NCBI GenBank assembly: GCA_016933055.1
Contig: JAFGBS010000009.1
Span: 270,001 to 302,000 of the forward strand
Direction: 5' to 3'
Length of the DNA: 32,000 nt
From: Promethearchaeota archaeon
GTDB lineage: Archaea; Asgardarchaeota; Lokiarchaeia; Sigyniarchaeales; Promethearchaeaceae
Shown here: piece after piece, positions 535 through 26,312 of the stretch
How positions within the stretch are numbered: the first letter of the stretch is position 1
How the letters are laid out: each line of letters begins with the position of its first letter
The notes under the pieces: generated by a model
What the model was told of the DNA's origin: nothing
Seen by the model: the letters and a program-made list of their open reading frames with translations, nothing else
The model's database searches: none
Made by a program: the position numbers and the translations under genes

Positions 535-1875
535 TTAATCTAATTCGCTTAGTCCGAATGAAACATCCAAAATTTCTGAAAATAATTGGGGAGATATCGA
601 AAGGAAATATACAAACTTTTCTTGATCAAGATTGGACAACGATGTCTTATTTGATGCGTTATGTATGAGATTGGACGGTTGCATTAATCCAATTCGATCT
701 AAATTTTTAATTAATTTATGAAATTGGGACCTTTCAAAGACACAATCAATACTTTCACAAGCAATATTGTACATATACATTAATTCCCCATAAGAAATAT
801 AATATCGGTTCTGCGATTGGAAAAAGGAACATATATTATCTAATGCTAATCGATCTATAATTTCCGTGTCCGAAACGAATTCTGCTATGCTTATCTCATT
901 AATAGTGTATCCTTTAAGTTGGAATCGACACGCATCCTGGATCTGGCTTGTATCGGCAATGTATCCATTTGATTGGATGATTGGATATAATTCACGCAAA
1001 ACTTGAATGCATTTTTCTGGCACACAACAATCAAATTCACAGACCATGTCAGTGATATATCGAATTATATTGATTTCTATGGGGCTCTTGAATGCAAGTT
1101 CACAGCGATCGCTAATGATTCTCTCCAAGATTGAAGGTTTGTATGTAGAGAGTTGAATCTGGAAATCTGATTTATGAATTTCAGCAAGATATGGAGAACT
1201 TTTCAGCAGGTTAAAACTCGTCACTAAGGAACAAGATAGGGAAGCACATACACTTTTAAGTTTATTGATTAGAGTAGGTTGCATGTATTCCGTGGAGTCG
1301 AAAAAGAAGAAAAAAGTTGATTGCGGGGTTTTAGTTAGTGTTTTGGAAATTAAATGTGTTAATAAATTCATTTGGGTTACCATAGTTGCTTTCATTATGG
1401 GTCTTGGATCTATTTTATAGTCAAATGTGTTCGAGAGTGTATTAATTAGGAAAAACAAGATTTCTTCTGGTTTCTTTTTCTCACAATTCACGTAACAAGA
1501 TTGAATGGTTAAATTTGGTTCTTCTGCATTGTTTTTTAATCCATTTTGAGAAATCCCCAATTCTTGTATAACCTTTCTCGTAAGAGATGTTTTTCCTACT
1601 CCGTTTAGTCCATACAAAGACAAAATTAGTGGAAATTGATCATGGATAGAATCACTTAAAATGGATTTCAGAATATTGCGTTCTTTTTGTAACCCGATGA
1701 GATTAGGGGGTAAAAAATGAGGATCAAATAAAGCACGGGGCCCCATATATTCTAACCGGTAATGAGATTTTGACGACATATTGTATATTTCTGGAAACCT
1801 ATAAAAAGTGGTATAAAAATGATAGAATCTCAGTGGGCTTATGGTATACCGAATTTCCGAAAGTGAAATTTTCAA
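535..1875 (-). CDS. cdc6: Orc1/Cdc6-like AAA+ protein with C-terminal winged helix; degenerate Walker B. Likely true start is ATG at 1779.
   Basis: Walker A YGLNGVGKT; 'CYVNC' strand typical of Cdc6; 'QLSTYKPSILERIISDR' aligns with Cdc6 FxPYxxxELxxILxxR; wHTH-like C-terminus (ISYGELMYMY...FHKLIKNLDRIGLM). Confidence 0.75.
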   Translation of the reverse strand: MKISLSEIRYTISPLRFYHFYTTFYRFPEIYNMSSKSHYRLEYMGPRALFDPHFLPPNLIGLQKERNILKSILSDSIHDQFPLILSLYGLNGVGKTSLTRKVIQELGISQNGLKNNAEEPNLTIQSCYVNCEKKKPEEILFFLINTLSNTFDYKIDPRPIMKATMVTQMNLLTHLISKTLTKTPQSTFFFFFDSTEYMQPTLINKLKSVCASLSCSLVTSFNLLKSSPYLAEIHKSDFQIQLSTYKPSILERIISDRCELAFKSPIEINIIRYITDMVCEFDCCVPEKCIQVLRELYPIIQSNGYIADTSQIQDACRFQLKGYTINEISIAEFVSDTEIIDRLALDNICSFFQSQNRYYISYGELMYMYNIACESIDCVFERSQFHKLIKNLDRIGLMQPSNLIHNASNKTSLSNLDQEKFVYFLSISPQLFSEILDVSFGLSELD

Positions 1876-17160: not shown

Positions 17161-17865
17161 GTGAAAATTTCTGAGTTAGTTCTTAAATTAGACATTCCTC
17201 GTTTAGATGAAGTATATTATCCCTTAGATGATAGCTACTTGTATATCGATTATCTAGAAACGCAAGATTTTACTCGAACTATAAACGAGTTATTTATTAA
17301 ATCCATTCCTATTCATATATTGGATTTAGGATGCGGCACTGGTATTCTGGGATTTTGCACTGTATATAAAATACTTACTCTGAAATTTGCCACACAAGTA
17401 GATCTAAGTTATGTGGATATTAATCCCATAGCCATTGAGACCGTAAAGTCTTTTGTAGATAAAAATTTCCATTTATTTGAGGAATTGGAGGACTTCTCTG
17501 AAAATTCCATAGATATTCATTATTATATATCGGATCTTTTTTCTGATGTTCCTTCTACTCGATTTGATCTTGTTGTTTTTAATCCGCCTTATCTTCCAAA
17601 CGATGAGGAGATTCACGAGAACCAAATTATCGATCAAGCTTTATATGGAGGATCTGAGGGGGTTTCTGTATCAATTGATTTTTTTAATCAAATCTCCCCT
17701 TACCTCTATCCTCACTCTAATATTTATTTCATCGCTTCTTCCTTAGGTGGGTTAAATACAATGGTCCCAAAACTTTCTCCCAATTTTAAAATTACTCTCC
17801 TTCAAAGTTTGCATATCTTTTTTGAAGATATATTATTGTTTCACGCCCGTCCCAAAATCTTCTAA
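17161..17865 (+). CDS. HemK2/Mtq2-like (release factor glutamine) methyltransferase
   Basis: VYYPLDDSYL N-terminal motif, LDLGCGTG SAM-binding motif, NPPY, GG.EG. Confidence 0.85.
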   Translation: MKISELVLKLDIPRLDEVYYPLDDSYLYIDYLETQDFTRTINELFIKSIPIHILDLGCGTGILGFCTVYKILTLKFATQVDLSYVDINPIAIETVKSFVDKNFHLFEELEDFSENSIDIHYYISDLFSDVPSTRFDLVVFNPPYLPNDEEIHENQIIDQALYGGSEGVSVSIDFFNQISPYLYPHSNIYFIASSLGGLNTMVPKLSPNFKITLLQSLHIFFEDILLFHARPKIF

Positions 17866-17984
17866 GAAATTATATCTATTGAGGTCTACAGTCTTTTAGA
17901 ATCCTTATCGGTATTTGAAACGACTTTTTAATCATTTTGATTTACATTAAATACTGTTCATTATTTTTCCTACATAGACTTCCT

Positions 17985-18278
17985 ATGCTTGAAATAACCA
18001 AGGAAGCGCAAGATTTCATTAAGAAATCTGGACACAATCAACCTGCTATTGTTGTATTCGAACGAACCTATAGTTCATGATGTGGTTCTCGAACTTATAC
18101 TAGTGTTCAAGTACACAATGAAACAGAATTGCGAGGATACGATGGATTGGAAGAAATTAAAAAGGAGGACGTGGAATTTTCTATTTTTATCGAATCCAAT
18201 CTTCATCCAAAACTCAAATTTGCATCCATAGATGTTCGTGGATATGGAGCATTTAAAAGATTAGCATTGATTGCGTAA
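17985..18278 (+). CDS. Probable selenoprotein, 97 aa, HesB/IscA-like small protein with UC motif (in-frame TGA at 18078-18080)
   Basis: MLEITKEAQDFIKKSGHNQPAIVVFERTYSS-U-CGSRTYTSVQVHNETELRGYDGLEEIKKEDVEFSIFIESNLHPKLKFASIDVRGYGAFKRLALIA*. The frame stays open for 65 codons after TGA, the TGA sits next to a Cys, and a SECIS-like hairpin follows. Confidence 0.85.
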
Positions 18279-18300
18279 AGCGTTTATGATAGGTAAAATC

Positions 18301-18354
18301 AGGCCAAATTGGATGATTGGTCAGTATAAAAGTGAGATTGATCATGACAGGTCT
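18301..18354 (+). promoter_or_regulatory. Eukaryote-like SECIS element in the 3' UTR of the selenoprotein gene
   Basis: Helix I AGGCC/GGUCU; core A-UGAU (18313-18317) / UGAC (18345-18348) with tandem G.A pairs; helix II UGGUCAGU/AUUGAUCA (8 bp); apical loop containing AAAA. Confidence 0.8.
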
Positions 18355-18431
18355 TGCAAAGACTTAACTGGCTTTAAGAATAAAAGAGAACTAAAATATA
18401 TCTATAAATGAATTAATGGTGAAATAAGAGA

Positions 18432-18881
18432 ATGAGTGATGACGAAGAAGTTAAAAAAATTCGCGAACAAAAAGAAGAATTATTAAAAAAAATGATTGCA
18501 GAACCTCAAATGCCACCGAACATACTTTATATCGATACGGTTGACCAGTTCAATGAACTAATTGAAACTTATAAAGATCAGATAATAATAATCGACTTTT
18601 GGGCCGAATGGTGTGGTCCATGTAAAATGTTTGGACCTATTTTCGAAGCAGCACAGAAAAAATGGGGACATGAAATTGTATTTGCTAAATTGGATACCGA
18701 AAAACTTCCAGGGGTAGCCCAACAGCTCCAAGTGATGGGAATTCCCATGGTAATGTTTATTAAAGGGAAAAAGGAGATTCATCGACAAGCAGGTGCTTTA
18801 CCTCGACAACACTTTGAGGACCTTTTGAAACGAGTAAAAGAAGCTGTAGATAGGGCGGAAAAAGGTTCTATGTATTCTTGA
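18432..18881 (+). CDS. trxA: Thioredoxin
   Basis: IDFWAEWCGPCKMFGP active site; cis-Pro motif GIP; SD-like ggtga upstream. Confidence 0.96.
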   Translation: MSDDEEVKKIREQKEELLKKMIAEPQMPPNILYIDTVDQFNELIETYKDQIIIIDFWAEWCGPCKMFGPIFEAAQKKWGHEIVFAKLDTEKLPGVAQQLQVMGIPMVMFIKGKKEIHRQAGALPRQHFEDLLKRVKEAVDRAEKGSMYS

Positions 18882-19728
18882 TTTGTATTTTTTTAAAAAA
18901 ATTCCATATTTCTCTTGGAAGTAATTGAAATAATCTCTTATTTTTCATATCTGTGCCAACACATGAATCAATATCCAAATTCCGAAGAAATTGTAATTTG
19001 GGAAAATTATCAATGTTCTTTTTCAAAAAACTCAAAGCTTTGGGCAGGATTTTGTTTTTGAATGGAAAAATTCCCGCAAGAAATTCCATAAAATGGCCTA
19101 AATACGGATTATTAACATATTCCGGGTTAAAGGTCAGCTTGACAATACCACTTTCGATCTGTGGTTGCGGATAAAAATCATAGGGAGAAACTCTCTTCAA
19201 ATCTTCAATCTGAAATAGTAATTGAGCAATGACACTTAATCTACCATATCCTTTTGCTTGCGGTAGGGATTGCATTCGTCTAATGAACTCTTCTTGGAGC
19301 ATAAGAATTATTATATCGGCTTTCTCTTTAGATTCTACAATTTTCTGGATAAGAGGACCTGAGATCTGATAAGGCACATTAGAAATGAGTTTAGAATGTT
19401 TTGGAAACGTAGTTTTAATTGCATCTTGGGTAATTATCGATATATTCTCATTGTGTACAAATTTCTCTCGCAAATATTTCGAGAGTTTGCGATCATTTTC
19501 TATTACTATTGTTTCCTTTGCATTCTGAATGATCTTTTGTGTCAAACATCCAAAACCCGGACCAATTTCCAAAACAACATCCCGATCTGCATCTAATGCT
19601 CCATACCGAATAATAAAATCTGCAACTTGTTCATTAATCAGAAAACATTGTCCTTGGTTTTTCCTTAGTGTAATTCCATATTGAGAAGATATGTTAAGTA
19701 TCTCTTCCTTAAGGGTACGAAATTCCAT
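18868..19728 (-). CDS. rsmA: 16S rRNA adenine dimethyltransferase RsmA/KsgA/Dim1
   Basis: KNQGQCFL, VLEIGPGFG, ISNVPYQIS, GYGRLSV, FYPQPQIES motifs; conserved cluster context. Confidence 0.95.
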   Translation of the reverse strand: MEFRTLKEEILNISSQYGITLRKNQGQCFLINEQVADFIIRYGALDADRDVVLEIGPGFGCLTQKIIQNAKETIVIENDRKLSKYLREKFVHNENISIITQDAIKTTFPKHSKLISNVPYQISGPLIQKIVESKEKADIIILMLQEEFIRRMQSLPQAKGYGRLSVIAQLLFQIEDLKRVSPYDFYPQPQIESGIVKLTFNPEYVNNPYLGHFMEFLAGIFPFKNKILPKALSFLKKNIDNFPKLQFLRNLDIDSCVGTDMKNKRLFQLLPREIWNFFKKIQIKNT

Positions 19729-24893: not shown

Positions 24894-26312
24894 GTGGATA
24901 GATCATGGACACCTGATGTGAGAAACATCGCTCAACGCCTTAACCGTGCAATAAGGAAACAAGACTTCATTCAAGCCAAAATTCTAATTGATCAATTGAT
25001 CAACCAGAGGAGAAATGGAGTAAATCCTAATCTTCGTCAAGATGCTGCTATTGTGATAGATCACATAATTCAGAAATACGGTAAAGAGCAACCAACAGAT
25101 TTTCTCTCTGAAGATTGGCAAGGGGATTTTAAAGGAATTCGCAAGCGGCTAGTCATTTTATTTCAAACCAGAAACTTAGGGGAACTGAAAAAGCTACTGG
25201 AAAGAATGAATACTGTTGCTACTACGAATGCAGACTCTTCCGTTAGGATACAAGCTCTAAATATTCTTGCAGAGATTGCAAAATACAATGTGAAATTGGT
25301 GGATCTCTATGAACAGAAATATCTGCGAGTTTTTTTAGATGAAAAAAATCTCTCTATTCAGAAACTAGTAAATGAACTATTAGTACAAATCGACCCTGCA
25401 GAATATTATGGAAATTATGAACAGACCTTAGAAAAATTAAATCGTAGAGAAAAAAAGGTTAACATCACCGTGCGATATGATTTTCACAACGATTTTTTAC
25501 GATATAAAGTTCAAGTTCTTAATAATACGGAGGAAATTTTGTGGGATGTGAATTATCAGATAAATAAATATGAGAACAACTTAATTATCCGCCAAATTTA
25601 TCCAGACTTTTACGAAGTTTATGAAAATAATGTCATTTATCTTTCTATTCTTCGCCCTGGTGAAATGAAAGAGATTATTGTAACGGTGGAACCACGATCA
25701 CCTCAAATCTATCTGGAGGGAATGGTAAATTACAAAAAACAAAATGAAAATGATTACTATGCTATTCCCGCCCAAGATCTAATGGTGGATTTAATAGCAT
25801 GCTTACCCAAGTTCCAATTATTGGAAAAAAAGGTAGGTGTGAGTCATATTCGGGAATTTTTTGATTTTCATGTCAAATATAAAAGTTCCAACGTATTTGC
25901 ATTACCGAACTCGATTAGCCCTAAGTTAGCTTATAAGACAGGTAAGGAAATTCTAGAAAAGTTACATACGATACTGGCGTTAGATGTCATGGATGAAGAT
26001 CCATTTTTTGGGGAGGCATTGTTTTATGGGAAGACAGACGCAAATGAAGAAATTGTGGCTATATTACGCAGTTCTGAGGAAAACAAATCTCTGGAAATTA
26101 CCATTGGTACGAACAACAACACCCACTTAGTAGCAATACAAATCAGTTTTGATGATCAACTCCGTCAGAACTTAATTTTATGTCCTGAATTCTCACCACA
26201 TGATAAACTAATTGAGCTTAGATGCCCCCATTGTTTGAGTTCTTTTGATAAAATTCGAAACTGGTGTCCTTGGTGCGGTTTTGAACTCGATCCCAACTTT
26301 CTCCTCTCATAA
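24894..26312 (+). CDS. Helical-repeat + beta-sandwich + alpha/beta platform + Zn-ribbon protein (adaptin/coatomer ear-like)
   Basis: HEAT-like VRIQALNILAEIAK; Ig-like YKVQVLNN...LRPGE.K.I.V.V.P; platform-like ALFYGKT...LEITIGT; C-terminal CPHC...CPWC. Confidence 0.6.
   Translation: MDRSWTPDVRNIAQRLNRAIRKQDFIQAKILIDQLINQRRNGVNPNLRQDAAIVIDHIIQKYGKEQPTDFLSEDWQGDFKGIRKRLVILFQTRNLGELKKLLERMNTVATTNADSSVRIQALNILAEIAKYNVKLVDLYEQKYLRVFLDEKNLSIQKLVNELLVQIDPAEYYGNYEQTLEKLNRREKKVNITVRYDFHNDFLRYKVQVLNNTEEILWDVNYQINKYENNLIIRQIYPDFYEVYENNVIYLSILRPGEMKEIIVTVEPRSPQIYLEGMVNYKKQNENDYYAIPAQDLMVDLIACLPKFQLLEKKVGVSHIREFFDFHVKYKSSNVFALPNSISPKLAYKTGKEILEKLHTILALDVMDEDPFFGEALFYGKTDANEEIVAILRSSEENKSLEITIGTNNNTHLVAIQISFDDQLRQNLILCPEFSPHDKLIELRCPHCLSSFDKIRNWCPWCGFELDPNFLLS

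Follow-up and report, generated by a model that had tools for sequence, protein, structure and literature searches.

The window analyzed here, a 32,000-nucleotide stretch of DNA from a Promethearchaeota archaeon (G000:C17:270001-302000), contains a very small gene with an in-frame TGA upstream of a thioredoxin gene. This arrangement raises the question of whether the small gene encodes a selenoprotein and, if so, whether the thioredoxin acts on it. A first-pass annotation had described a gene with a UC motif, a SECIS element, and a WCGPC thioredoxin as co-oriented and adjacent, with the SECIS located in a 153-nt spacer; translation, a parse of the SECIS, and matches to TIGR01068 and PF00085 bear out this description. 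We propose that the small protein is a selenoprotein that would be recycled by the adjacent thioredoxin, a reading to which we assign a probability of roughly 55%. The first two features of the locus are:

17985-18278, plus strand: selenoprotein gene, 97 aa, IscA/HesB fold, U32-C33 motif; a relative of the CC/Se-motif family
18078-18080, plus strand: in-frame TGA decoded as selenocysteine (U32); an invariant column in the homologue alignment

Once the TGA is read as selenocysteine, the frame is uninterrupted over its 97 residues, and the Sec residue falls in the motif T-Y-S-S-U-C-G-S. The gene is currently unannotated, and standard ORF calling cuts it into two pieces. In f1, the taxonomic family to which the genome of the window belongs, all 21 hits (a count that includes the copy in the window) contain a single in-frame TGA at one shared column, followed by C-G. 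The initial search recovered one to three homologues in each of 12 of the 13 other f1 genomes. A profile search against 400 genomes of the phylum found the family in 27 genomes; f1 genomes contain up to five copies each, some with two TGAs and some with none (Cys). More than 40 homologues preserve both halves of the gene in a single frame and have either TGA or Cys in the column of the Sec codon. The variants at this site in the wider family are C-C, U-C, U-U, U-S, and U-G; close homologues carry U-C-G-P, and in distant members Cys33 is replaced, i.e., the vicinal cysteine is not universal. A library of 1.84 billion representatives yielded 48 matching proteins in all, in which the site reads W-C (the TGA called under code 4), C-C, or W-W, or the protein is a fragment ended by the TGA. 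Database homologues bear the Pfam label PF28096. A metagenome scan with the selenoprotein sequence returned spurious hits only, at 56% GC.

The genome encodes the machinery to decode selenocysteine. A tRNA-Sec is located on the same contig as the selenoprotein gene, and searches recovered SepSecS (343 bits), SelD (160 bits, with one in-frame TGA of its own), and an EFsec-like factor (229 bits, slightly below the cut-off for bacterial SelB). Because the TGA is conserved in 21 of 21 hits, Cys and U-U forms occur elsewhere in the family, and the Sec machinery is present, we conclude that the 97-aa gene encodes a genuine selenoprotein; short of proteomics, we consider the decoding of the TGA as Sec settled.

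A paralogous subfamily has two consecutive in-frame TGAs (L158:5983-6315, on the reverse strand of G009:C1:68844-81149, and also L159 and L160). Its motif is K-G-U-U-G, with vicinal Sec-Sec, and a Loki-type SECIS is located 27-34 nt past the stop of each of these genes. The database representatives of this subfamily read G-W-W-G as a result of code-4 gene calls.

The spacer between the two genes (18279-18431) contains a putative SECIS element that begins 22 nt past the stop codon of the selenoprotein gene. All of its parts are on the plus strand:

18301-18374: Loki-type (eukaryote-like) SECIS, 74 nt, recognized by pattern parse, by an MFE fold with the same helices, and by covariation
18301-06 and 18369-74: outer helix
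18313-16: AUGA
18317-25 and 18337-45: helix composed of U.U plus 8 bp
18326-36: 11-nt loop, AUAAAAGUGAG
18346-47: GA
18349-65: inserted extra hairpin

Of 21 homologous 3' regions, 18 have the same architecture past the stop codon. In the alignment of these elements, 94% of the cells are paired and each of the eight helix pairs exhibits double (compensatory) changes, compared to at most 55% paired cells in a control with slid partner columns; the aligned elements were chosen by a pairing scan, a choice that favors high pairing and covariation. Given the shared architecture and the compensatory changes in 8/8 pairs, we regard the element as a real SECIS. Over both strands of the 3.76-Mb genome (7.5 Mb), a strict SECIS pattern had 16 hits, three of which are directly 3' of selenoprotein ORFs (a VhuU-like gene, HdrA+VhuD, and the gene in the window). 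Covariance model R1 matches 18310-18349 in a whole-genome search (150 of 7901 candidates scored), and model R2, which was built without this genus, gives the element 11.4 bits (E 1.5, rank 3 in the window). In a scan of 17800-19000 against Rfam, no SECIS family matched, and the hits returned were chance hits. The fold energy of the whole spacer is uninformative (z -0.45), and that of the 78-nt element alone has a z of -1.3. The best window hit of R2, at 25599-25639 on the minus strand (16.8 bits, E 0.08), lies antisense in a 472-aa ORF (24894-26312) and was set aside as probably due to chance.

The SECIS elements described from Lokiarchaeota by Mariotti et al. 2016 (PMC4989117) have an AUGA, a 9-bp stem, an 11-nt loop that is A-rich at its start and has a G at its end, and then a GA. 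The element in the window shares the AUGA, the nine-position stem, the GA after the stem, the 11-nt A-rich loop (here ending in AG), and the position near the stop codon. However, a further hairpin is inserted past the 3' GA, before the 3' strand of the outer helix, and the next cistron follows with no oligo-T ahead of it; among the 16 other parsed loci outside the genus, 13 have an oligo-T. The first-pass annotation had considered an intercistronic position unusual for a eukaryote-like element. It is less so, since a single SECIS serves both genes of HdrA-VhuD pairs in Lokiarchaeota (PMC4989117), as it does in this genome. The relevant genes are on contig G000:C11 near 129109 and 166519 and comprise an HdrA-VhuD pair, with one Sec each and a single common SECIS 24 nt past VhuD, and a VhuU-like D-P-U-x-x-C gene with its own SECIS.

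The remaining features concern the thioredoxin gene and its transcription:

18402-18409, plus strand: TATA-like box CTATAAAT, -30 to -23 from the trx ATG; a possible leaderless trx promoter
18418-18422, plus strand: GGTGA, a Shine-Dalgarno-like motif at -14 from the trx ATG
18432-18881, plus strand: thioredoxin, 149 aa, WCGPC at 18609-18623, N-terminal extension of ~35 aa; TIGR01068, PF00085
18888-18894, plus strand: T7 run, a candidate archaeal terminator for the pair, 7 nt past the trx stop

The thioredoxin gene starts exactly 153 nt downstream of the selenoprotein gene on the same strand. The protein scores 99.4 bits against TIGR01068 (cut-off 96.8) and 83.6 bits against PF00085 (E 1e-23), and its active site is W60-C-G-P-C64. 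The genome has four Trx-like genes, among which this is the best canonical one; the others are ~28% identical to it. Upstream, the pair is flanked by CorA and a small methyltransferase, and downstream by a convergent KsgA-type rRNA dimethylase and DUF655. The last 14 nt of the thioredoxin gene (18868-18881) overlap the 3' end of the dimethylase gene, and the T7 run falls within the dimethylase coding region. An apparent Sec-containing thioredoxin in G007 was rejected, as its TGA is located upstream of the real start codon.

The TATA-like stretch and the ggtga motif noted earlier in front of trxA are both present, and both agree with genome-wide peaks. Before ATGs across the genome, GGTGA is enriched at -14 to -9, and TTTA[AT]A peaks at -30 to -26, a position typical of leaderless genes; the thioredoxin gene has TATAAAT at -29 to -23. 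The two signals cannot serve the same mRNA, and we therefore infer a read-through bicistronic transcript that would use the Shine-Dalgarno motif, possibly alongside a leaderless trx transcript. No T5+ run is present in 18279-18431. A T5+ run is located 24-48 nt past the SECIS GA in 13 of 18 homologous loci; the five loci without one, which include the window and its congener, are all closely trailed by a co-oriented gene, and the locus in G020, which was parsed separately, has no T run past its SECIS either. Judged from these signals, in this genus both genes probably share one transcript with the SECIS between the cistrons. A scan for bacterial-type promoters and terminators was set aside as not relevant in archaea.

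AlphaFold2, run on the 21-sequence alignment, returned a model with a pLDDT of 91.4, in which U32-C33 forms the turn between strands 20-31 and 34-45, at the exposed tip of a beta-hairpin. The nine best chains in a Foldseek search are all IscA, SufA, HesB-like, or DsrR (1r94_A, E 5e-4). An independent structure search against 48,161 chains gave IscA (Z 9.6, rmsd 2.8 over 88 residues), SufA (9.2), IscA (8.5), and DsrR (8.5), with the first unrelated chain at Z 3.7. The selenoprotein thus models as an IscA/SufA fold, in which Sec32 may correspond to the first IscA cysteine.

The sole sequence-family hit of the selenoprotein is NF041239 (32.4 bits, below the curated cut-off of 40 bits; E 7e-8, alignment 2-94). 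This family also matches 20 of the 21 relatives at E<=0.01 (best 9e-12), and by these scores the protein is a related, sub-threshold branch of it. NF041239, the CC/Se motif family, is a computational prediction from Moorella thermoacetica with no known function (PMC13188914). Both groups are small proteins (~90-100 aa) with a vicinal Cys/Sec pair. In contrast to NF041239, the protein in the window is archaeal and falls below the cut-off, and its gene uses a eukaryote-like SECIS in the 3'-UTR rather than a bacterial in-frame one. The selenoprotein has the fold of the HesB-like selenoproteins (TIGR01911) and of IscA/SufA (PF01521). Its Sec is in a Gly-rich turn, and the U-C-G-P of the close homologues resembles U-x-G-P, the motif given for HesB-like proteins; however, neither HMM matches. 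TIGR01911 had no hit to the selenoprotein at E<=0.1 and missed the gene in a whole-genome search as well, and the selenoprotein had no hit in Pfam, PF01521 included. A search of PDB sequences found nothing. U32 and C33 are the only Cys/Sec residues of the protein, which ends in ...FKRLALIA and has no C-terminal Cys-x-Cys; with no cysteine besides C33, it lacks the cluster site that A-type carriers build from three cysteines.

The fold suggests a different role, in which the selenoprotein would be a carrier of a metal, of Fe-S, or of selenium or sulfur. Two Sec-Cys pairs, one from each subunit of a homodimer, would ligate a cluster or soft metal(loid), as cysteines do in A-type carriers, and the thioredoxin would be a mere neighbor or would only keep the ligands reduced. 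Several observations beyond the IscA/SufA/DsrR fold agree with this role. The ESM Atlas clusters nearest to a natural Cys homologue carry PF01521, although these are weak leads; the C-terminus of distant members is a C-C or S-C-C tail, which recalls the C-terminal cysteines of IscA; a search of the genome with PF01521 was empty at E<=0.01; the genes of another paralogue clade converge with that of a conserved PP-loop ATPase (ThiI/QueC-like); and CopZ/2Fe-2S-type selenoproteins with U-C and C-U pairs are on record (PMC13188914). However, with no cysteine beyond C33 each monomer offers only two ligands, the carrier models PF01521 and TIGR01911 do not match, and a pure carrier role leaves the conserved adjacency to thioredoxin, described below, unexplained. 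We consider a carrier function, the main alternative, rather unlikely.

The PP-loop ATPase, of ~290 aa, was observed in three genera (L151:6398-7258, L152:6384-7286, and L153:4992-5861), convergent with a paralogue clade that is not adjacent to thioredoxin. Its Pfam matches, to QueC, ThiI, and tRNA_Me_trans, are weak and hint at a sulfur- or selenium-transfer context.

Conservation of the gene neighborhood had been proposed as a check on the pairing. We used the thioredoxin as the tblastn query against the homologous loci and searched five further genomes. A thioredoxin orthologue adjoins a member of the selenoprotein family in 10 of 13 f1 genomes and, outside f1, in one genome from a second family, in three arrangements, and is not adjacent in three genomes. 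The adjacent orthologues are 40-77% identical and align from the first residues, N-terminal extension included. By arrangement, the genomes are:

Tandem thioredoxin and selenoprotein: G000 (the genome of the window) and G001, both of its genus, g1; G020 (family f4, motif U-S-G)
Divergent, 170-250 nt apart: G004, G011, G009, G006, G010, G012, G013
Thioredoxin 2 kb away on the same strand: G008
Thioredoxin not adjacent to a family member: G003, G005, G007

In each genome the thioredoxin adjoins just one of up to five paralogues. The copy in G003 is not adjacent to thioredoxin, yet its SECIS most resembles the one in the window. In genera g4-g6 the pair is part of a block that contains two RagA-like GTPases, an HTH regulator, the thioredoxin, the selenoprotein, a TPR protein, a kinase, an unknown protein, and TIM; because these pairs are in one conserved synteny block, the seven divergent cases are not independent, and the count is inflated. 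Thioredoxin is the sole neighbor common to the window and the divergent block, and the pair has therefore survived at least one change of context and orientation. In a tree of the short selenoproteins, the Trx-divergent paralogues of g4 and g6 group together (support 89/82), and the g5 copy and the gene in the window are unplaced relative to this clade. Since the adjacency is conserved across genomes and arrangements, a functional link between the selenoprotein family and thioredoxin is probable. The check thus has a positive outcome, and the interpretation given in the first-pass annotation is supported in part.

Two further observations concern these neighborhoods. Two tandem Gtr1/RagA-like GTPase genes are located beside the pair in g5 and g6 (L154:2793-4621 and L155:2882-4774); in g4 a single copy was detected. 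In G003, a family-like ORF (L064:941-1183, minus strand) is divergent from a second thioredoxin paralogue (~1501-1836, plus strand); the match is very weak (E 0.13), and the ORF may be a remote Cys-form member of the family.

The adjacency could also be without functional meaning, i.e., a product of inherited synteny and chance, with the two genes independently transcribed and unrelated in function. The TATA-like box at leaderless distance before trx would fit independent transcription, the conserved synteny block explains seven of the adjacent cases, and three genomes lack the adjacency. However, the pair occurs in three arrangements and contexts (in tandem in g1, again in tandem in f4, and divergently oriented in g4-g6), and adjacency by chance is estimated at ~0.25% per genome or less, assuming 1-5 family genes, one thioredoxin orthologue, and about 4000 genes. 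We therefore regard a meaningless adjacency as improbable. That the TGA is a true stop, which would leave a 31-aa peptide or a pseudogene and a hairpin formed by chance or acting as a terminator, would agree with the split made by ORF calling, the element's fold-energy z of only -1.3, and the E of 1.5 from the leave-genus-out covariance model, but is almost certainly wrong given the two halves that share one frame, and a column with either TGA or Cys, in >40 homologues, the confident full-length structure model, the Sec machinery in the genome, and the covariation of the SECIS.

We thus return to recycling of the selenoprotein by thioredoxin. In the mechanism we envision, the UGA at 18078-80 is recoded by the Loki-type SECIS that begins 22 nt past the stop, and Sec32 would be the reactive center, with Cys33 as the likely resolving residue. 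Once oxidized, or after passing on a bound group, Sec32 would be linked to Cys33, or to a partner, in a selenenylsulfide; reduction of this bond by the adjacent thioredoxin would reset the selenoprotein, and the thioredoxin would itself be served by a TrxR-like enzyme encoded elsewhere in the genome (316 bits). Both genes would be expressed from a shared transcript with an intercistronic SECIS, and trx may have a leaderless promoter as well. The gene, its Sec codon, the SECIS, the fold, the identity of the thioredoxin, and the conserved adjacency are established; the role of thioredoxin as the reductant, the Se-S switch, and the co-transcription are what we infer.

A comparable redox center is the C-terminal Gly-Cys-Sec-Gly of mammalian thioredoxin reductase, whose vicinal pair can form an eight-membered selenenylsulfide ring that exchanges with thioredoxin. 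The selenoprotein likewise has a vicinal Cys/Sec pair, and the proposed vicinal Se-S switch of the IscA-fold selenoproteins would be chemically like this GCUG tail. However, the order is reversed (Sec-Cys), the pair is located at the hairpin tip of an unrelated small fold, and electrons presumably flow from thioredoxin to the selenoprotein, with a separate gene for the TrxR-like enzyme.

In favor of recycling by thioredoxin we counted the conservation of the TGA, the Sec machinery, the SECIS covariation, the location of U32-C33 at a hairpin tip, the adjacency, and the TrxR-like gene, and also the lack of oligo-T between the genes, the T7 run after trx, and the Shine-Dalgarno motif at -14. Against it we counted the lost adjacency in G003, G005, and G007, the count inflated by synteny, the restriction to one paralogue, the replacement of Cys33 in distant members, and a tree that leaves the orthology of the gene in the window with the Trx-divergent clade undecided. 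In addition, the thioredoxin is the best canonical one of the genome and therefore could be a housekeeping gene that is merely nearby.

Surveys of Asgard selenoproteomes list only SelD, FrhA/VhuU, HdrA, FrhD/VhuD, and Prx-like, AhpF-N-like, and DsbA-like proteins (PMC4989117; PMC11227280), and the family counts are seven in Asgard archaea (PMC11227280) and 11 in all archaea (PMC13188914). The selenoprotein family described here is absent from the archaeal family lists of PMC11227280 and PMC13188914. As far as the surveyed literature shows, neither the family nor its pairing with thioredoxin has been described for archaea. The kinds of components, a small redox selenoprotein and a lokiSECIS, are already known; here they are combined next to a thioredoxin.

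The expansion of IscA-fold selenoproteins spans U-C, U-U, U-S, and C-C forms, with up to five per genome. We suggest tentatively, and with more doubt than confidence, that this Asgard-specific expansion is a new thioredoxin-recycled class for redox or transfer reactions with a vicinal Se-S (or Se-Se) switch, in this genus with an intercistronic SECIS. The unlisted family is widespread, being present in 12 of the 13 other f1 genomes with one to five copies each, and it adds many new examples of eukaryote-like SECIS elements, vicinal Sec-Sec genes among them. The spacer without a terminator is a natural setting for the question of whether such a SECIS acts within a polycistronic mRNA, and the conserved thioredoxin neighbor suggests, for a protein with no assigned function, a redox role that lends itself to direct testing.
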